Shown here in pieces: positions 25,631 through 34,582 of a stretch of 34,582 nt of DNA. The notes beneath the pieces were generated by a model. That model was not told the DNA's origin. It worked only from the letters and a program-made list of their open reading frames with translations, and made no database searches. Source of the stretch: a virus; UHGV virus genome UHGV-0129090; one strand, given 5' to 3'. Position numbers and translations under genes: made by a program. Each line of letters opens with the position of its first letter. Position 1 is the first letter of the stretch.

Positions 25631-26017
25631 TTATTTTATTTTAACGCAGTTTTGAAAGTAGTAATTACGAGTATCAGATCTCAATAAGAAGATAAAAGTA
25701 ATATCGTTTTGCTCTTTACTTCCCATTGTTGCAAGGAAGTATCGCTGCCTATCATTATCATAAGCCATTGTCATTGAATCATTAGATTCTATTGGTCCGG
25801 TGGCGTGAGTCATTGCACCGAAGTTAAGGATAAAACCATCACTATTAACTTTAGCGTGACCTGCACCAGAATAAGAAGATTTTTCTACTGGAGTATCACC
25901 CAGCATTTCAACTACTTTCACATCACATTGATACAATCCCTGCTCTGGTAGAGAGTGAGTGTTAGCCAGTACCGAAGGAGCTACTAACAGTAATGCAGAT
26001 ACGATAACCTTTTTCAT
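25631..26017 (-). CDS. Secreted/periplasmic protein with N-terminal signal peptide (paralog A)
   Basis: MKKVIVSALLLVAPSVLA signal sequence; two Cys; paralogous to 26027-26407. Confidence 0.55.
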   Translation of the reverse strand: MKKVIVSALLLVAPSVLANTHSLPEQGLYQCDVKVVEMLGDTPVEKSSYSGAGHAKVNSDGFILNFGAMTHATGPIESNDSMTMAYDNDRQRYFLATMGSKEQNDITFIFLLRSDTRNYYFQNCVKIK

Positions 26018-26026
26018 TTCTATTCC

Positions 26027-26407
26027 TTATTCAATAATACAATTGGAGAAGTTCAAAAATACGGGATTATTCTCATTGCTGACCATATACTGTGTTTTAC
26101 CATCGATTGCACTAATAATAATATCGTACTGGTCAGTATCTACGGCATAGGCCATCAGGCGACCGCTTTTAAGTTTTGAAACAGGGCTGAATGAAATATT
26201 CACATCCCTAAACTTCACACTAACAGCACGGTTATCAATACTCACATAACCAGTCATACCATAATAACCAGTCTTTACTACTCGCTTTCCTACCTGTTCC
26301 CACGATTCAACACCGCAACGATACAGACCATCATCAGGGAGTATTACATTTACTGCCAGTACCGAAGGGGCTACTAACAGTAATGCAGACAGTACAATCT
26401 TTTTCAT
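26027..26407 (-). CDS. Secreted/periplasmic protein with N-terminal signal peptide (paralog B; track ORF 26027-26419)
   Basis: MKKIVLSALLLVAPSVLA signal sequence nearly identical to paralog A at nucleotide level; shared LP-x-x-GLY-x-C and NC-[VI] motifs. Confidence 0.55.
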   Translation of the reverse strand: MKKIVLSALLLVAPSVLAVNVILPDDGLYRCGVESWEQVGKRVVKTGYYGMTGYVSIDNRAVSVKFRDVNISFSPVSKLKSGRLMAYAVDTDQYDIIISAIDGKTQYMVSNENNPVFLNFSNCIIE

Positions 26408-26586
26408 AAATTCATCCATTCGGGATTATCTACTTTATCAGAATCAATGGCATTGTTGATGCCAGATAATGACAGTGTTTTTGATTACGGCGACTGCAAT
26501 TTAATAAGTAGGGTTAATGTATTTTATTATATCATAGTAATATGCAGTCCCCATAACTAAAAGTACGGCAAATATTGTTTTCTTCA

Positions 26587-26967
26587 TCACAGATTATCGT
26601 CTATATAATTAGTTGGTTTCGAGAACTCAAATTCTGTACCGTAATTATTTGAACGATCAACTATCTTAGTGGTGTTTTTGTGGGGGCCGTGGGCTTTATG
26701 TTCTTCGAAGCTATGAATATTTGTAAGTCGGTCGGCGGCAATAATACAGCTACCAGTAGATGGGCGTTCTTCACCCAATAGCATAGGCTGACAATCACTA
26801 CTGAATTGTGGGCGATACTCTTTACCACCATTTACGGGGAATAATACTAGTGTACGACCGTTAATATCACCTACTACGGCTTCATTCATAAAAGCAGGCG
26901 TTATAGTAGTACAGCCAGTAGTGATTGTAGCCGTAGCGAGTACAGCTAGGGCAAAGAGATGTTTCAT
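26587..26967 (-). CDS. Putative lipoprotein
   Basis: MKHLFALAVLATATITTGC: signal peptide ending in a lipobox-like TTGC. Confidence 0.5.
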   Translation of the reverse strand: MKHLFALAVLATATITTGCTTITPAFMNEAVVGDINGRTLVLFPVNGGKEYRPQFSSDCQPMLLGEERPSTGSCIIAADRLTNIHSFEEHKAHGPHKNTTKIVDRSNNYGTEFEFSKPTNYIDDNL

Positions 26968-27075: not shown

Positions 27076-27759
27076 TTATACTACCTTATAGGCTTTAGTA
27101 ACAAGCTCTTTGAAGTCTTGCTCGTCGGCCTGTTTAGGATACTGCTGCTTGTACTCGGCGTAGTATTCTTGTGCTTTCGCGTTCATCTTCCCTTTCTGGT
27201 TTAGATGGAACTCATGACCGTTCCACTTCGCATTAAGCGGGTATTTTTTGCGATAGTCCTCACTATACGCCCGTAAAAACTCGTCAACGTCCGATAGTTC
27301 GGGATTCTTCTTAACCAACTGAATGTATACTTCATCCTTGAGTAATGCCGCTGGTAACTTCTTATTGATTACATTATAGGTTCTTCTTTCGTCCTTCTTG
27401 CTATCAACTATGACTACTTCGAATATCTTATTACCGTTTGGCTTCGATGCTTTTTGTGGTATGGAAGCAGGAGAAGATACGGCAAGTGTAGAAAGCAGTT
27501 CCTCTACACTAGAGAAGCTACCAGACTCTTGTACAAGTGATTCTAATAGCTTCTTAGCTTCGTTTAGTCGCTCGGTACGTAGTGTGCTTACATAGTCCTT
27601 CACTTCGCCCAGGCGTTGAATAAGTGTATCTATATCTTCTTCGTTGACGTTTGCCAGTGCATTGCGGCCTGTTGCGTCGGCAGTCAACATACCTACATTA
27701 AAATCATCATTCAGAATCGTACTGATCATTTTTGCGGTAATGCTTTTAATGCTTCCCAT
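27076..27759 (-). CDS. Hypothetical protein (227 aa)
   Basis: Largest ORF of the early region; Lys/Glu-rich C-terminus; no confident motif. Confidence 0.45.
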   Translation of the reverse strand: MGSIKSITAKMISTILNDDFNVGMLTADATGRNALANVNEEDIDTLIQRLGEVKDYVSTLRTERLNEAKKLLESLVQESGSFSSVEELLSTLAVSSPASIPQKASKPNGNKIFEVVIVDSKKDERRTYNVINKKLPAALLKDEVYIQLVKKNPELSDVDEFLRAYSEDYRKKYPLNAKWNGHEFHLNQKGKMNAKAQEYYAEYKQQYPKQADEQDFKELVTKAYKVV

Positions 27760-27947
27760 AATACAGCCTCATTTGGTTTTAACAGTAACTGAGTACAATC
27801 GGTTAGTTTATCTAGATTTGCAAGTGGGATCTCCTTCAAAGTGTTTATCATCTCACTGGTAAGACCAAATTCACTTAGTAGATCTTCTTCGGAAAGTTTC
27901 CGTACTGTATCTATATAGAGCACGTTTAGCTCATTAAGATCATTCAT
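27726..27947 (-). CDS. Hypothetical small protein
   Basis: 73-aa ORF overlapping neighbours at both ends. Confidence 0.35.
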   Translation of the reverse strand: MNDLNELNVLYIDTVRKLSEEDLLSEFGLTSEMINTLKEIPLANLDKLTDCTQLLLKPNEAVLWEALKALPQK

Positions 27948-28228
27948 AGCTTAATGTTCACGCGTTTTCTAGTTAGTAAGTTCAATAGTGCTTCGTTATA
28001 GGTAGTGTGCCACGTCTTACCATCACTAAAAGGCTTATTGATGTGTCGGGGATGCTTAGACATAGTGACCGCCCCTACCTTTCGGTTGTGATCGTCGAAA
28101 ACTTCGGTTATAAGTCCACCAGCAATACAACTAATACGCATGTAAAGATCCCAGCAATGAAGAAAAAGAAATTTGCAGCCGCAAGGTAAGTAAAGGTTAA
28201 TTTTTTCATAGAGTGTCCATATTAACAC
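27944..28228 (-). CDS. Hypothetical small protein (start uncertain)
   Basis: 94-aa track ORF with several internal Met. Confidence 0.3.
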   Translation of the reverse strand: MLIWTLYEKINLYLPCGCKFLFLHCWDLYMRISCIAGGLITEVFDDHNRKVGAVTMSKHPRHINKPFSDGKTWHTTYNEALLNLLTRKRVNIKL

Positions 28229-28264
28229 TACCAGTATATTTCCGGTACTAGTAGTGTAAATTGA

Positions 28265-28558
28265 TTAATGTACGTTAGTAATTTCTTCGGATACTACTTC
28301 TAGTAATGAAGCGAAAGCACGTTCACCATCGAATCGGGCAATAGTGATCTTATCGGTTACACTCTTAGGTAGATTGATGTTCTTTTCCCAATGGAACAAG
28401 CCACCAGACATAAGAAACATACTGAATAATTCACGCTCATTATGACGGGAACTAATTACTACATGAAACATTCCCGTTACACGATTATCAATCTCGTTAA
28501 TCTTGAATCCTAAATCATGTGCCTTAATGATCAAATCAGTAGATACACCCTTAGACAT
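28265..28558 (-). CDS. Hypothetical protein, divergent from 28800-28982
   Basis: 97-aa ORF; upstream region contains promoter/operator-like elements. Confidence 0.4.
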   Translation of the reverse strand: MSKGVSTDLIIKAHDLGFKINEIDNRVTGMFHVVISSRHNERELFSMFLMSGGLFHWEKNINLPKSVTDKITIARFDGERAFASLLEVVSEEITNVH

Positions 28559-28654
28559 TTTCGATACTCCCTACGATTAGTAACAAGGTTATGATGACTA
28601 CAAATAGTACATGCTCTTTAGTGATAGTGAACGTCATGTTGTGTCCTCGTTGTA

Positions 28655-28686
28655 TTGACACCACTGATACTAGGATCATTAGTATC
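28655..28686 (+). promoter_or_regulatory. Candidate sigma70-type promoter (TTGACA -35) overlapped by palindrome GATACTA-N7-TAGTATC (operator-like)
   Basis: ttgaca at about 28655-28660; perfect 7-bp inverted repeat at about 28666-28686; sits in the divergent intergenic region. Confidence 0.35.
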
Positions 28687-28799
28687 TAACGTCAACACTA
28701 GTTACTAAAATAATTTATTAGTAGAAAACGCTTGATAGTAACTAACGGTAGTGTATACTGTCTTTATTGAAGCAAAACACTACTACGAAGGGATATATA

Positions 28800-28982
28800 A
28801 TGAATACAGTAACTTACTTAGAACGCGGTAACATCACTGATATCATGGTTAACGATGTATATATGGGGGCGGTAGTAAAAGGTGACGATAACAAATATCG
28901 TACCGTACATAAGAACAATGCAGAATCTGGTACGTTTACTGCTTTCCACTTCGCAGCGTACCATGTAGAAAAAGCAGTATGA
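28800..28982 (+). CDS. Hypothetical small protein (track ORF from alternative start at 28767; ATG at 28800 has a better ribosome-binding site)
   Basis: gaaggg about 8 nt upstream of ATG at 28800; one of only a few plus-strand genes; followed by terminator. Confidence 0.4.
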   Translation: MNTVTYLERGNITDIMVNDVYMGAVVKGDDNKYRTVHKNNAESGTFTAFHFAAYHVEKAV

Positions 28983-28993
28983 TAGAAACGATG

Positions 28994-29018
28994 AAGCCCA
29001 CATTAAGTGGGCTTTTTT
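28994..29018. terminator. Rho-independent terminator (bidirectional, between convergent genes)
   Basis: Stem aagcccac / gtgggctt with loop attaa, then tttttt. Confidence 0.65.
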
Positions 29019-29527
29019 GTCTTGTGTGGTTTCTTAGTCTTCGGTACTGGTACTGCTTCTTCCTCTGTAACGTCCTGTACGCCCCTTAGAATGCGTTCTA
29101 CTTCCTCGGCGTTGCGTTGTACGTCTGTATAGATTCCTTCTGCTACGTAGCGTTCTAGACCCTCTACGTTGGGGATTCCGTGGCTGGCGACCACACCATC
29201 CACATGATGAATATGTAGGTCCAGTCCACCATTGATACGGGCACGGAAGTTATACGGGTTATTATTCAGTATTTCGATTTGCATTATTTTTACTCCATTG
29301 ATTATACAGTCTGACATAAAGATTATTTCATCCAGATCATCCATGACTACGGACAACTGGAAGTATTCTGCCTCATTCAGTCCTAGATAGTAATCAGGGG
29401 GATGATCGTACTTGATAGTATTATTTAGTAGTATGCCTTTACGATTGACTGCATAACGTCTGGCTAACTTGTAGTCATTGAATATCAAGCCACGTGGGTT
29501 ATTGTATATTATTTTTAGTTTTCTCAT
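29003..29527 (-). CDS. Hypothetical protein
   Basis: 174-aa ORF; Lys/Pro/Thr-rich C-terminal tail. Confidence 0.4.
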   Translation of the reverse strand: MRKLKIIYNNPRGLIFNDYKLARRYAVNRKGILLNNTIKYDHPPDYYLGLNEAEYFQLSVVMDDLDEIIFMSDCIINGVKIMQIEILNNNPYNFRARINGGLDLHIHHVDGVVASHGIPNVEGLERYVAEGIYTDVQRNAEEVERILRGVQDVTEEEAVPVPKTKKPHKTKKPT

Positions 29528-29840
29528 TGGGTATCCATTGGTAAGTAATTTGTCCTTTGACGTGTTTTAGTATTTCTATCTGCACCTTCTGTACTAATTC
29601 TGCATCGTATAGAGTACATTCTTGAAAGAGCATTTCTTCCGTGTACTCCGTAAGTAGTTTTCGTGGTATTTCTTGCGTATATGTTCTTTCAGTCCACCTA
29701 TTGTTAATGTAGTCATACATGAAAGATAGTTCTCCACTTGCGAAGATGTATAGTCCTTGTGATGGGAAGTGATTCAGTACGGCATCATGATAGTTATGGG
29801 AGTATCCCCAATGCGTCTGTTTACTGCTTATGTATTTCAT
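29499..29840 (-). CDS. Hypothetical protein
   Basis: 113-aa ORF overlapping downstream gene. Confidence 0.4.
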   Translation of the reverse strand: MKYISSKQTHWGYSHNYHDAVLNHFPSQGLYIFASGELSFMYDYINNRWTERTYTQEIPRKLLTEYTEEMLFQECTLYDAELVQKVQIEILKHVKGQITYQWIPNEKTKNNIQ

Positions 29841-30149
29841 TTTTTCTTTTTCCTTATTGATAGTTAATTATTCGGTACTGTCGCCGCCCGTTCCACTCCG
29901 TCGCCGCGTCCAACTCACAAAATATATGAGGAAGCACTTTGATAGTAGTAATGAGAACTACACCTACTGGATCGAGCAAAGCGAAGGGAGAACGCTTGCG
30001 GGATTCCGTAGCGATAGCGAGGAAAACGCAATGTTAGGTGTAATAATTAAATAATTTCAAAGACTCGCTCTGTCGAGGCTTTCTAATTACTTAACTATTT
30101 CTTCCTGTTCTATTAAGACATACTAAAATGAAAAATTATATTATATTAA

Positions 30150-30320
30150 GGGGGGCTAATGCACCAATCGCCCATAAAATTTCAAATCCATTTCAGAAAA
30201 GCCTGTAATATCAAGGGTTTGCGGCCTATTTTGCGTGTGGGTTAATCCCATTAGCCCATACAAATCAATCCCAATAGCCCATAATTAGCATATATGTATG
30301 GGCTAATAGGGGCTAATGGT
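30150..30320. repeat. Cluster of short repeats (GGGCTAAT / ATTAGCCC and AATCCCAWTAGCCCATA) in a non-coding region
   Basis: GGGCTAAT at about 30153, 30300 and 30310; reverse-complement copies at about 30250 and 30274; 17-bp direct repeat at about 30244-30260 and 30267-30282. Confidence 0.5.
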
Positions 30321-30321
30321 A

Positions 30322-30804
30322 TCATAACAATCCCGATAGATATTTGATTAGATCATTAATCGGGATGTTAGAATCAATCTTCTGTACTAACACTTCTTTT
30401 TGTTTCTCGTCTAGTTGCTTTCCTGATACCTGGCTAACTACACGTTTCATTGAGTTTTTTAGCGGTATACCCTGAATGATTAGTAGTTCTAATGCCTCTG
30501 ATACTTTCTTACATACTGTTTTATACTTAGTTTCCTGTGAATCACCCTGCATCTGTGGTTTTCCATTATGTAGACTACGCATAGTATTGATCGTATGTAG
30601 TGTTAGTGATTTAGTGATGTAATCACATTTTCGTATAACTTCGAATATTTCCTCTGAATCTACTTTATTACGTCCTAAAGATTTACAATTTTGAATTGCA
30701 TTATTGATTGCCTGAGTAGCTTCTAATGATAGTTCTTTGAATTTTATTTTCTTTACTTCTTTGTACACAATACTGTTATTGTGTGGTTTTTCCATGTTAG
30801 CCAT
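30322..30804 (-). CDS. Hypothetical protein adjacent to repeat cluster
   Basis: 160-aa ORF. Confidence 0.4.
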   Translation of the reverse strand: MANMEKPHNNSIVYKEVKKIKFKELSLEATQAINNAIQNCKSLGRNKVDSEEIFEVIRKCDYITKSLTLHTINTMRSLHNGKPQMQGDSQETKYKTVCKKVSEALELLIIQGIPLKNSMKRVVSQVSGKQLDEKQKEVLVQKIDSNIPINDLIKYLSGLL

Positions 30805-30885
30805 GATGATAAATACTCCTATAAAATGTGTCTTGTTCCTTAATATGGCGTACTAGTGCTTCTCCTCACTAGTACGCCTTTTTTA

Positions 30886-31491
30886 TTATTTCTTGAATAG
30901 TGCCTGTACTTTGAATACTAAATCAGAAGGTACTTTTTGTAGTTCTTCTTGATAGGTTTTACCGCGAAGTAGTTCCATGTATACCTTACGACTAGTAGAA
31001 CGGTTGAATGTACTATTCAACGAGTAAGTTAGATCATCCAAAAGTACATTGCCATTAGTACCGAAGACGCTATACGCATGTAAGTAGATATCATGTATTA
31101 GTTCTACATCAAACTTATCTTGCATTGGTTTACGCTTACTAATACTGTATTTTACATTAGTGCTATGTGCCGTCCATTCGATGTTACTTACTTCGTTATT
31201 ATGCTTATCTTCATCAATATGATTGATAACTACATTTTTGTACTTCTTAGTAAGCCTTAAATATTCCTTACTATCAAATGTAGATCCCATCATGCGATGC
31301 ACTGCATGTTTATATGATTGATATTCATTATTAGTACGAAGATCAATCCATTTCTTTTTCTTTGAGTCGTATACTTCGGCATTCTTACTAATCCAGACAT
31401 CATCTACATAGTGTATAGTATTGTCGGTATTGTTATTGATCTTTGCTTTATATAAAGTAACTAGTACATTATTTTCATTTAGTTTTCTCAT
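30886..31491 (-). CDS. HNH endonuclease
   Basis: INHIDEDKHNNEVSNIEWTAHSTN matches the His...Asn...Asn-Leu/Ile-x-Trp core of HNH nucleases. Confidence 0.6.
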   Translation of the reverse strand: MRKLNENNVLVTLYKAKINNNTDNTIHYVDDVWISKNAEVYDSKKKKWIDLRTNNEYQSYKHAVHRMMGSTFDSKEYLRLTKKYKNVVINHIDEDKHNNEVSNIEWTAHSTNVKYSISKRKPMQDKFDVELIHDIYLHAYSVFGTNGNVLLDDLTYSLNSTFNRSTSRKVYMELLRGKTYQEELQKVPSDLVFKVQALFKK

Positions 31492-31561
31492 ATGTATTCT
31501 TCCTTGAATATATTGATATGTACTTTTTGCTAAAGTGAAAGTACATTTAAAACCTTTGATC

Positions 31562-31714
31562 TTAGTTAGAAGAAAGTACCGCGTGTTTATTGATTAGATA
31601 CTGTATTGCAGCACTACGCGTTTTCGCTTTTCCTTCGGTAATTAGTTTATCAAGTACATCGGCTTGGGCTTCAGATACTCGCACACCAATACTAATTGAT
31701 TTGTTTTCTTTCAT
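31562..31714 (-). CDS. Ribbon-helix-helix (Arc/CopG-like) DNA-binding protein; short ORF absent from the supplied track
   Basis: My translation: MKENKSISIGVRVSEAQADVLDKLITEGKAKTRSAAIQYLINKHAVLSSN; strand-helix-helix pattern; aaggaag ribosome-binding site about 6 nt upstream of ATG. Confidence 0.55.
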   Translation of the reverse strand: MKENKSISIGVRVSEAQADVLDKLITEGKAKTRSAAIQYLINKHAVLSSN

Positions 31715-31765
31715 ATAGCTTCCTTTTTTGTTGAACAAATTGCTAAAAATTAAATCCGAAAATAT

Positions 31766-31781
31766 CCCCGACGAATCGGGG
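31766..31781 (-). terminator. Terminator-like hairpin between small membrane protein gene and RHH gene
   Basis: ccccga / tcgggg stem with T-rich tract following on the minus strand. Confidence 0.35.
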
Positions 31782-31899
31782 AGTATTATTTCTTGGAGGA
31801 GATTACATAGTTATTTATCATTTTGGAATTGAAACGGCCTCAAATAACCGCCTACATGTACTATTATATCACTTTTTTTCATTTCATCTCAAAAATCAG

Positions 31900-32082
31900 C
31901 TAGATTTTTTTATAATTGATTGATTGGTATAGAAAAACTAATCCCTTCACTATATAAGCCAGTACCGCTACGCCTAGAAACATGAAAAAGCCTACATATA
32001 GTACCTTAATGAATCCAGATACCAGTACCACTACCCCTAAAACCATAATCAATGCCGTGTAGATCCAATCCATCATAATCAT
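31900..32082 (-). CDS. Small hydrophobic membrane protein (two predicted TM helices)
   Basis: 60 aa, almost entirely hydrophobic, ending in basic NYKKI. Confidence 0.4.
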   Translation of the reverse strand: MIMMDWIYTALIMVLGVVVLVSGFIKVLYVGFFMFLGVAVLAYIVKGLVFLYQSINYKKI

Positions 32083-32205
32083 TCTCCTTTCTTGTTATTG
32101 TCTTTTATTTAGTACAAAAACGAAAAAATCCCCCTTAATGCGACATCACGATTAAAGGGGAGAATAGATACTTGCTTTCTTGTTCTGACAACTACTATAG
32201 CTGCA

Positions 32206-33804
32206 TCACTTCCTACTGTCAATCATTGTAGTAGCTAATGCCATTGCACCATCTACTACATTCTTCCAATACTCTAAAGCATCATCATCAAGATCACCAG
32301 ACAACGTACCATCTAGACTAAGACTACTAACAGATCTTAGAGTAGTAGTTAGTGTATTAGTACCACCAGTACCAGTACGCTGTATATCTACATCAATAAT
32401 CACTAGATGGCTTAGTGCATCAGACCAATACTTGATAGTACAGTATATGGTGTACTTAGACTTGCTTACATCTTCCCGTACTATGTTTATGTGCTGTATT
32501 AGCTTCTTAATGCGGTTGTTTAGTTCGATGCGATAGTTAGTATCTAAATCTAACTTATCATCATCAAAGGTTAGCTGTATATCCTTCGGTACGTCTACTG
32601 ATTTTAGGCGTATAGTCAATTCTTCCTGTTCGCGGTTCATGATCTCTAATTCATCCAGTATCGCAAACTTTTCATGCCTACTAGCTTTATTAAGACGTTC
32701 ACGGAACGCGGCAATATCCCTTTCGTTCTGAATCCACTGATCACGCAATGTTAGTACGTTATTATCTTCATGTTTATATACTTCACTGAAATCTAATCCA
32801 CGAATCGCCGTTAGTAATGGGCGTTCTAATGCGTTATATGCAATGCTACGGGCTTCACACGTTTTATTAGTACGTTTACCTAAGCAGACTGTAAAAAGAT
32901 TACCGTGGCTGTTACGCTTCACTATAATTGATTGATTGCATACTGGACACCGTGACATACCCGAAAATATATTGAGCATGTTTTTTTGGTGAGTATTACC
33001 CTTTTTGTTGGTGCTGGCTTTTAATGCCTGTACGCGGTCGTATAGGTCTTTATCAATTATTGGTGGATAACGTGCATCATCGGCAACTCGTTTATCACTA
33101 AGAGCACGTAATACGGTTACTAGTGTCCACGGCTTACCATTATCAGTATTGCCATAAGTACGGACAATCTGAGCCGCACCAATGCCATTAATATAATCAT
33201 TATACATACGCTGGATCGCCTTTGCTGTATCATTTGTACGGTACTGTTTCACGCCGTCTAGCTCTACTACATCAAACCATCGAGGCCGCACCTTTGATAC
33301 TTTTCCGTAGCGGTTGGCGTGTGACTTCTGCATCATTATACTTTTGCGTTTTGACTCCCCGTTAGCACGGTTTATTTGTATTGTAAGCACACTTAAACTT
33401 TCTGGAATATAACGCGAATACGTCATTCCTGTCTCAATCTCTAGGATAGTAGTACCACGGTTAATTAGACCGGATATGATTTCTACTGCCTGAAATGGAT
33501 CAAGACGTGTAAGGCGGTCGATGTTCTCTACGATTAGTACAGAATCATTGATCACACCGTCCATAACCATCTTTCGGTACTTGCCTAAGAGTGTTTTTTC
33601 ATTCCAGTTCTTCCCACGGAACGCCGATTTACCCTCTGCTACCATCTGCGTTATGTTCTCGGTATCGAGCGTAAAAGGTAGTCGATGGTCTAATACAACA
33701 TACTGTAAAAACTGATTGATTGTGTTTACCTGCCTTTGAATACCAAAGCCGTCAACCTGCTTGAGCGTTGAGATACGGGCATAACACCATACGGGCACTT
33801 TCAT
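32206..33804 (-). CDS. Large serine recombinase (phage integrase)
   Basis: N-terminal resolvase-type catalytic region YARISTLKQ and VENIDRLTR, followed by a large C-terminal domain with a Cys cluster (CPVCN...C...C); GGAGGT ribosome-binding site; start about 40 bp from attR. Confidence 0.85.
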   Translation of the reverse strand: MKVPVWCYARISTLKQVDGFGIQRQVNTINQFLQYVVLDHRLPFTLDTENITQMVAEGKSAFRGKNWNEKTLLGKYRKMVMDGVINDSVLIVENIDRLTRLDPFQAVEIISGLINRGTTILEIETGMTYSRYIPESLSVLTIQINRANGESKRKSIMMQKSHANRYGKVSKVRPRWFDVVELDGVKQYRTNDTAKAIQRMYNDYINGIGAAQIVRTYGNTDNGKPWTLVTVLRALSDKRVADDARYPPIIDKDLYDRVQALKASTNKKGNTHQKNMLNIFSGMSRCPVCNQSIIVKRNSHGNLFTVCLGKRTNKTCEARSIAYNALERPLLTAIRGLDFSEVYKHEDNNVLTLRDQWIQNERDIAAFRERLNKASRHEKFAILDELEIMNREQEELTIRLKSVDVPKDIQLTFDDDKLDLDTNYRIELNNRIKKLIQHINIVREDVSKSKYTIYCTIKYWSDALSHLVIIDVDIQRTGTGGTNTLTTTLRSVSSLSLDGTLSGDLDDDALEYWKNVVDGAMALATTMIDSRK

Positions 33805-33844
33805 CTACTTACCTCCATTCACTGTGGTGTACATCCTATCACAA

Positions 33845-33850
33845 CTGTTC
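33845..33850. repeat. attR core (ctgttc) at right prophage/host junction
   Basis: Same hexamer as 667-672; host frame resumes here; phage arm gtggtgtacat (33824-33834) mirrors atgtacgccac (687-697) across the core. Confidence 0.7.
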
Positions 33851-34532
33851 ATTGCTGCTGATGGGGCCGCAGTGGCGTTCGCGTCTCGATCGTGAAGCCA
33901 GCCTGCTGGGTCACAGTGGTTGCCGTATTGGCGGTAACGATCTGGATATCGCGCTGGCGTTTAAAAACCTGATGCCGTTACTGGGCATGGGTGGCGAAAC
34001 CGAAAAAGGCATCGCCCTGCCGATTCTGCCGTGGTGGAATGCGGTTGCCATCAACGACGTTCCTGCACAGAGTGATTTCTACAGTAGTGCCAACGGTCGT
34101 CTGCTTAACGATCTGGTACGCGATGCCCGCGAACCGGAAAAAGTGGCCCTGTTACAGAAAGTCTGGCGTCAGCGTTTAAGCTATCGCCTGGTGCGTAGCG
34201 CAGAAGAGAGCAAAATCGCCCTTTCAAGCACTGCGGAAACCCGCGCCTCACTGCCGTTTATCAGCGATGAACTGGCTACGCTGATTAGCCAGCAAGGGCT
34301 GGAAAGCGCCCTCAGCCAGCCACTGGCGCGGATTCTGGAACAGGTGCAACTGGCGCTGGATAACGCCCAGGAAAAACCGGACGTTATCTACCTGACCGGC
34401 GGTAGCGCCCGTTCGCCGCTGATTAAAAAAGCGCTGGCAGAACAGTTGCCGGGCATTCCGATTGCAGGCGGCGATGACTTTGGCTCCGTCACCGCCGGGC
34501 TGGCACGCTGGGCAGAAGTGGTATTTCGTTAA
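33845..34532 (+). CDS. yegD: Host YegD, 3' fragment continuing the interrupted gene (track ORF 33768-34532 includes a phage-derived 5' extension)
   Basis: GC-rich; begins CSLLLMGPQW exactly where the left fragment ends; ends LTGGSARSPLIKKALAEQLPGIPIAGGDDFGSVTAGLARWAEVVFR. Confidence 0.85.
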
Positions 34533-34582
34533 AAGAAAATGGCTCAGCAGCGGCTTAAATCAGCCTGCGCCTGAGCCAGTTT

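Follow-up and report, generated by a model that had tools for sequence, protein, structure and literature searches.

The stretch of DNA analysed here, which we call the window, is the 34,582-nucleotide (nt) UHGV virus genome UHGV-0129090, and our subject is the group of genes that follows its integrase on the minus strand, namely a small hydrophobic open reading frame (ORF), a 50-amino acid (aa) ribbon-helix-helix (RHH) protein and an HNH endonuclease, together with the promoter, leader and hairpin that precede the RHH gene. The window represents a prophage of about 33 kb in an Escherichia coli chromosome. An earlier note had raised the possibility that the three genes form one functional module; comparison with related loci does not bear this out, because the gene after RHH varies and HNH is not a conserved partner of RHH. 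With moderate confidence, we favour a reading in which the locus would comprise three independent units: an RHH regulator of the early operon, an HNH homing endonuclease and a separate membrane gene. Ratios of non-synonymous to synonymous substitution rates (dN/dS) show that each of the three ORFs is a real gene kept by purifying selection, with values of 0.03-0.37 for RHH among the compared loci, about 0.2 for HNH and 0.20 for the membrane ORF (compared with locus L014, at a dS of 1.1). The trio should not, in our view, be annotated or tested as one defence, toxin-antitoxin (TA) or excision module.

Genes and signals beside the integrase

The comparison covered about 25 loci (labelled L001-L026) from at least eight enterobacterial genera (Escherichia, Kluyvera, Pectobacterium, Serratia, Mangrovibacter, Enterobacter, Phytobacter and Pantoea) and many different integration sites. 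The E. coli relatives are prophages at yegD, ybhA, msyB and rimO, and the others come from Pectobacterium, from Kluyvera-like and E. marmotae-type contigs, from Serratia, Mangrovibacter, Enterobacter and Phytobacter, and from Pantoea, which is represented by one locus on a megaplasmid. In the window and in these loci the integrase is followed by a small hydrophobic ORF, then by a strong promoter and a T-tailed hairpin, and finally by RHH; each locus has its RHH homologue 400-600 nt downstream of a large serine recombinase that sits at the element's edge. Positions given below are those of the window unless a locus is named, and genes, promoters and the leader are on the minus strand unless stated otherwise.

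The RHH protein is encoded at 31562-31714 behind the Shine-Dalgarno (SD) sequence AAGGAAG, 4 nt upstream, and its ORF was unlisted solely owing to its length of less than 60 aa. The earlier note had picked out this ORF, its good ribosome-binding site (RBS) and its RHH character from the letters, and the identification held: an identical ORF in strain WGI31CT carries the label of an RHH-domain protein (WP_166697512.1; RefSeq/PGAP), and the AlphaFold2 model (predicted local distance difference test score, pLDDT, 85) has an extended segment at residues 1-14 followed by helices at residues 15-26 and 33-49. The protein has the strand-helix-Gly turn-helix layout, with an invariant G28 and a strand in which hydrophobic and polar residues alternate. 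The profile search that had been suggested for this ORF gave matches to the NikR N-terminal profile (E=0.022) and, below its gathering score, to Pfam RHH_1.

Upstream of the RHH gene lies a near-consensus sigma-70 promoter-like site (31863-31892) made up of TTGAGA, an 18-nt spacer and TATAAT with an extended -10 TG (11/12 match). It is followed by a leader or small RNA (sRNA)-like unit of about 100 nt (31752-31856), in which a 5' stem-loop, a CU-rich motif (CTCCTCC, 31796-31802), a GC hairpin and a T tail succeed one another. The hairpin, which the earlier note had also placed between the membrane ORF and RHH, occupies 31765-31782, with a 7-bp stem (5 GC) and a T-rich tail at 31752-31764. Among the relatives this arrangement is kept: 19/19 loci have a hairpin with a T tail whose distance to the RHH ATG is 34-68 nt, mostly 46-54 nt, a CU-rich motif precedes it in 17 of the 19, and a -10 element with at most one mismatch from TATAAT (exact in 14/19) is found 21-142 nt before the hairpin in all of them. 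The sequences of the hairpin stems vary among loci and their pairing is kept. An Rfam scan of 27500-34582 at E<=1 returned no match, the C4 family included. The possibility that the leader RNA controls the start sites of the transmembrane (TM) ORF, RHH or other genes by antisense or anti-SD pairing was rejected, since the RNAduplex scores were no better than background; no preferential pairing was seen with the translation-initiation regions of the TM ORF or RHH, and a manual check found only SD/anti-SD pairing of 4-7 bp.

Symmetric elements were found on either side of the RHH gene. The palindrome TTGTTcAACAA (31728-31738), which lies 2 nt upstream of the RHH SD sequence and has no other exact copy in the 34.6-kb window, is a candidate RHH operator. 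Between RHH and HNH, at 31518-31546, a perfect 9-bp inverted repeat, ATGTACTTT-N11-AAAGTACAT, for which 0 occurrences are expected by chance, is a candidate for a second operator or for an RNA hairpin.

The HNH gene (30886-31491) encodes a 201-aa, I-HmuI-like HNH_3 endonuclease; the earlier note had already called it an HNH endonuclease. Its product matches PHROG 959 (E=1.3e-10), the homing-endonuclease model HEase of PADLOC (1e-5) and, below threshold, Pfam HNH_3 (E=0.0011; 19 bits versus a gathering score of 24.8), and it also matches about 500 remote HNH_3 proteins. The catalytic motif is intact, residues H91, D93, N98, N99, N103 and N112 being invariant across 18 sequences. In a Foldseek search the model matched I-HmuI (1u3e_M; probability 1.00, E=0.02, 107 aligned columns), the other matches being noise, and a weak sequence match to 1u3e was seen as well; the model is poor over the C-terminal 80 residues, for which there are few homologues. 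The protein thus resembles I-HmuI, the HNH homing endonuclease of an SPO1 intron (PDB 1u3e), in the conserved His/Asn of the HNH_3 motif and in being its best structural match, and it differs in being free-standing rather than intron-encoded, with a target site and a mobility that are putative.

The position downstream of RHH is occupied by different genes in different relatives: by the HNH_3 gene in the window, L001, L002 and L014-16, by an unrelated AP2-type HNH (phrog_953) in L004, L007, L012, L013 and L019, by an ORF of 77-101 aa, basic in the majority of cases, in some loci, and directly by a superfamily 2 (SF2) helicase-like protein of 458-958 aa in some others. This variability suggests that HNH is a free-standing homing endonuclease in a hot slot, and an HNH gene in an intergenic slot that varies among relatives is a feature shared with other free-standing phage HNH endonucleases. 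The idea of a homing endonuclease with its own regulator fits as far as the HNH gene is concerned, but without the dedicated regulator. At the far side of the HNH gene, alignment of L002 (about 6001-6157) with the window (30730-30885) revealed that about 75 nt from the 5' end of the window-type 160-aa gene remain after HNH in L002, where the sequence then switches to a different, 183-aa gene; this recombination joint is consistent with a block transfer of the HNH gene with its flank. A 12-bp GC-rich hairpin after HNH (30847-30878) would be a weak terminator for minus-strand genes because its T run is on the plus strand.

The hydrophobic ORF (31900-32082) is 60 aa long as called. Its description in the earlier note as a small two-TM protein near the integrase was confirmed by a grand average of hydropathicity (GRAVY) of 1.65 and by about 45 contiguous hydrophobic residues, which leave room for two TM helices; no Pfam, PADLOC or PHROG family matched it. 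The SD sequence GGAG (32084-32087) nearly abuts the first ATG (1 nt) and is farther from the ATGs at 32076 (7 nt) and 32073 (10 nt), so that translation probably begins at one of these two and yields a protein of 58 or 57 aa. In the relatives this slot is always taken by a small hydrophobic ORF, whose sequences fall into three or more unrelated types, and one TM sequence type was found with four RHH types. In L004 (5640-5872) and L007 (4741-4971) a frameshift affects the C-terminal end of the hydrophobic ORF, and GTG serves as the start codon of RHH, which may indicate decay. With its conserved position after int, the membrane gene would form a separate unit between terminators, and its product could be a superinfection exclusion protein or a membrane factor expressed in the lysogen.

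The integrase itself (32206-33804) is a large serine recombinase of 532 aa, as indicated by Pfam Resolvase, Recombinase and Zn_ribbon_recom and by PHROG 95 (E=4e-31), and it sits at the prophage edge, adjoining a 3' fragment of host yegD. After int, a terminator-like hairpin with a 10-bp stem and an 11-nt loop can be read from the sequence at 32117-32161 (hairpin 32161-32130, then a T tract), and the relatives too have GC hairpins in this place; just upstream of this hairpin there is a promoter-like site, TTGACA-17-TATAGT (32222-32194).

RHH types and exchange of the RHH cassette

The RHH sequences of the family fall into discrete types, which differ in the predicted DNA-facing residues of the beta-strand and have helices A and B in common. 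The type B RHH is conserved between E. coli and Mangrovibacter, with a dN/dS of 0.03 at saturated dS. From int to the hairpin, a stretch that includes the TM ORF, the promoter and the leader, the window and L002 are about 97% identical; they diverge abruptly just after the T tract, and the divergence ends just before the RBS of HNH. The exchanged unit consists of the RHH ORF with about 45 nt of 5' untranslated region (5'UTR) and about 60 nt of 3' flank, the two RHH proteins being 48% identical, and the inverted repeat at 31518-31546 lies inside the swapped segment. The converse is seen with L014, where the RHH gene differs from that of the window by a dS of only 0.16 and the flanking TM and HNH genes by a dS of about 1. 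As read from these alignments, the RHH gene with its 5'UTR is swapped as a cassette between otherwise near-identical phages.

The candidate operator goes with one RHH type and those close to it. The palindrome TTGTTnAACAA occurs once, and at the same position, in exactly the eight loci that have an RHH with the strand SISIGVR (type A), and nowhere else among 23 loci; the variants TTGTTaAACAt and TTGTgaACAA accompany two RHH types similar to that of the window. The element after the gene behaves differently, as all loci with an intergenic gap after RHH have some inverted repeat there whose sequence does not track the RHH type. The region around the promoter +1 was also considered as a type-specific site and discarded, because L014 (type A) resembles L002 (type B) there.

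Proposed regulator of the early operon and competing explanations

These data can be joined into a mechanism that is largely read from sequence and comparison. A strong promoter, a leader ended by a terminator, a 5'UTR of 45-50 nt and the 50-aa RHH gene make up a conserved cassette at what would be the head of the early operon. The RHH protein would most likely be a sequence-specific transcriptional regulator, probably an autorepressor like CopG, Arc or Cro, and by binding DNA in its own cassette, at the candidate palindrome TTGTTcAACAA by the RBS and possibly at the inverted repeat after its stop codon, it would determine the amount of transcription that gets beyond the promoter and terminator to reach the early genes downstream. 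The latter encode either an SF2 helicase-like protein (458-958 aa) or a 155-160-aa protein with iteron-like repeats, which is why we regard RHH as heading a replication-type module and the early operon as probably a replication operon. The HNH gene would have been inserted between RHH and the next early gene, into a slot that elsewhere holds the AP2-type HNH or is empty. Binding of RHH at the named sites, repression and control of the early operon are all steps that we infer; a regulatory, immunity-like role for RHH, one of the options in the earlier note, is plausible.

Several observations weigh against this picture. The Pfam RHH_1 match of the RHH protein reaches 16.9 bits versus a gathering score of 20.5 (E=0.006), and the top Foldseek matches of the model, although RHH folds (TCP, ParD and NikR), have E>1 and lack significance, the domain being so small. 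The idea that one operator rule covers all RHH types was rejected, as types B, C, D and E have no consistent palindrome at the corresponding place. The type A palindrome comes after the terminator, right beside the RBS, and no convincing promoter belongs to it; from this position RHH would have to repress as a roadblock or through a weak -10-like TTTAAT. The helicase assignments of the downstream proteins are below the Pfam gathering scores, and none of the related loci provided an HNH-free allele with otherwise identical flanks.

The arrangement has well-studied counterparts. CopG (RepA) of plasmid pMV158 is a 45-aa RHH autorepressor of the copG-repB operon, and as with CopG a very small RHH protein is encoded first in what is probably a replication operon, in whose control an RNA element may also take part; by analogy, RHH may repress its own transcript through a short symmetric DNA element. 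The two proteins have no significant similarity in sequence, RHH belongs to a prophage rather than a plasmid, and the RNA element here is co-directional and upstream instead of a counter-transcript. Arc and Mnt of phage P22 (immI) are likewise small phage RHH regulators whose N-terminal beta-strand reads short palindromic operators, in a region that also contains a small RNA (sar); in contrast to immI, no antirepressor gene follows here, there is no divergent Mnt-like partner, and RHH_1 is matched below threshold.

A stronger version of the regulatory role would make RHH the master lysogeny (immunity) repressor, an analogue of CI, that is expressed by terminator read-through from a constitutive promoter and blocks the early operon, with the RHH types as immunity groups. 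RHH is the sole recognisable DNA-binding protein in the 8.6-kb early region, its types are swapped as a cassette between near-identical phages in the way immunity regions are, and neither a CI- or Cro-like helix-turn-helix protein nor, in regulatory regions, a LexA box was found (LexA boxes were fewer than expected by chance overall). However, E. coli SI-NP020 harbours two prophages of the family, L007 at yegD and L025 at msyB, whose integrases differ and whose RHH proteins are of the same type, with the same DNA-facing strand residues. The candidate operator is moreover single in the phage, unlike in a multi-operator switch, and a separate divergent promoter with a palindrome at 28655-28686, which does not depend on RHH type, is another candidate for the switch. 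We therefore consider a master repressor unlikely, though worth keeping in view. The same limited credence goes to the broader proposal that promoter, terminator-ended leader or sRNA and type-variable RHH together are the lysis-lysogeny or immunity switch of an undescribed siphovirus prophage family. We are equally hesitant about its particulars, in which a single RHH and an attenuator would do the switching in phages that have serine integrases, lack GCGC and have no CI/Cro-type proteins, and in which RHH types would equal immunity groups. If the cassette were a lysogeny switch of this new kind, its significance would rise.

Control could also be exerted mainly by RNA, either through an antitermination gate, as with lambda PR'-tR' and Q, or through an immunity RNA, as with P4 CI and P1 c4, in which case RHH would simply be the first passenger gene. 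The near-consensus promoter followed by a terminator at a constant distance from the first ORF in 19/19 loci agrees with such control, as do the stems that differ between loci with pairing kept, and the likeness extends to a constitutive-looking promoter with a terminator within about 50-150 nt at the head of a long co-directional operon. In contrast to those systems, there is no homology by Rfam (C4 included), no Q-like or N-like antiterminator was recognised and no complementary target was found; RNA-level control would also leave the diversification of RHH types unexplained. We rate it as quite unlikely.

The earlier note had further suggested that RHH might be the recombination directionality factor (RDF), or excisionase, of the adjacent serine integrase. 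RHH shares with Bxb1 gp47, phiC31 gp3, SPbeta SprB and TP901-1 Orf7 that it is a small protein in a serine-integrase phage. TP901-1 Orf7 is small and encoded close to int, and RHH always lies 400-600 nt downstream of the recombinase. The two proteins do not co-vary, however: pairwise identities of RHH and integrase are uncorrelated (Spearman 0.09, 16 loci), three pairs of loci have RHH proteins that are 98-100% identical and integrases that are only 24-27% identical, and, conversely, integrases that are 95-98% identical are paired with RHH proteins that are 40-52% identical. RHH is, in addition, a DNA-binding fold, whereas those RDFs act by binding the integrase. The RDFs of serine integrases differ in fold, and some are DNA-binding proteins with a second, moonlighting role (PMC12286644). 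RDFs of large serine recombinases have no consistent synteny with the integrase (PMC12286644), so that adjacency is no evidence for this function. An RDF role is thus very unlikely, and it would be wrong to take RHH for the excisionase by default.

A TA or abortive-infection module is very unlikely as well, whether RHH served the membrane protein or the nuclease as antitoxin or regulator, or the hydrophobic ORF and the sRNA formed a type I TA pair. In its favour, RHH is a common antitoxin fold, ParD is among the fold matches, and the hydrophobic ORF keeps its place together with the promoter-terminator sRNA-like unit, whose CU-rich motif is anti-SD-like. Against it, the gene that follows RHH varies, and a single TM sequence type is found with four RHH types. 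The sRNA runs in the direction of the hydrophobic ORF instead of antisense to it, and the best duplex partners found for the leader RNA do not include the translation-initiation region of the TM ORF, no score exceeding background. The defence function envisaged in the earlier note found no defence, TA or abortive-infection signature in its favour; the only match from PADLOC was the homing-endonuclease model for HNH, with nothing for RHH or the TM protein.

The conserved promoter-terminator-RHH cassette offers the most tractable entry to early-gene control in this prophage family, and the RHH specificity types that are swapped with the cassette could supply small orthogonal repressors.

Downstream early genes and the prophage family

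The earlier note had named as possible RHH targets the palindrome at 28655-28686 and the repeats at 30150-30320, both of which failed in comparative tests. Directly after the gene of the 160-aa ORFan (30322-30804), the repeat region contains six to seven GGGCTAAT-type copies in both orientations. L014 has an RHH of the same type (94% identity) with wholly different repeats (CATCTTTCCA), and L012 and L023 have yet other repeat sets after the 155-160-aa gene; the homologues of the 155-160-aa protein in these three loci are 19-35% identical, and the repeats co-vary with this protein. Binding of RHH to the repeats was rejected on the ground that they follow the adjacent 155-160-aa protein while RHH is constant. 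The repeats are probably iterons of the 155-160-aa protein, and their co-variation suggests an initiator-iteron (origin) pair.

The palindrome at 28655-28686, in the region 28640-28720, is built on the inverted repeat GATACTA-N7-TAGTATC and overlaps a promoter-like TTGACG...TATCAG on the minus strand. It lies by the ORF 28551-28679 (minus strand) and faces the 60-aa ORF 28800-28982, which is among the very few genes on the plus strand. It is identical in L002, whose RHH is 48% identical to that of the window, and for that reason it was rejected as a type-specific RHH site. The palindrome may be a second regulatory switch that is independent of RHH type. A related element, GATACTATC, is found after RHH in several relatives.

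The prophage is inserted in yegD, so that past the integrase come the truncated 3' part of yegD and then yegI. Its phage part is low in GC (36-41%), whereas host sequence of about 48% GC is present at about 1-700 and from about 33,840 on. Phage genes are nearly all on the minus strand, with siphovirus-like structural genes for a terminase, a portal, a capsid protein with a protease-like part, a tape measure and a J-like tail fibre, and with an early region of about 8.6 kb made up almost entirely of ORFans by Pfam and PHROGs. Members of the family were present in about 27 of 5,426 complete E. coli genomes. The 50,697 deposited phage records yielded no DNA match to the region; among deposited phages, neither RHH nor the 160-aa protein had similar proteins, and the integrase had matches of only 23-30% identity, in Burkholderia, Pseudomonas and Xanthomonas phages. 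A literature search on this prophage family and on RHH-type RDFs found nothing relevant. The genes discussed here represent kinds that are already known, namely an RHH regulator, a homing endonuclease of the HNH group and a small membrane protein, and the prophage family that carries them is rare and essentially uncharacterised.

A separate and stronger oddity than the gene trio, which is worth a study of its own, is the absence of GCGC. The prophage of about 33 kb (535-33950) contains 0 copies where a trinucleotide Markov model predicts 46.6, and the approximately 1.4 kb of host flanks contain 17. Likewise, the phage parts of 20/20 related loci that were checked, about 150 kb from at least six genera, contain 0 copies where about 160 are expected. 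This may reflect either family-wide avoidance of a restriction site or self-avoidance of a nuclease of the phage.

In L004, L006, L007, L008 and L012, the early region beyond the RHH and replication genes bears opposite-strand cargo that resembles defence islands, comprising an OLD-type ATP-dependent nuclease, a RipA-family membrane protein, 8xMP proteins, SMODS/SLATT, GIY-YIG nucleases and split S-adenosylmethionine (SAM) methyltransferases. In the window, the minus-strand region 25631-26967 encodes two paralogous proteins of about 130 aa with near-identical signal peptides (MKK..SALLLVAPSVLA), as well as a putative lipoprotein of 126 aa with the lipobox TTGC. None of the three had a match in Pfam, and they may be surface or periplasmic proteins expressed in the lysogen.

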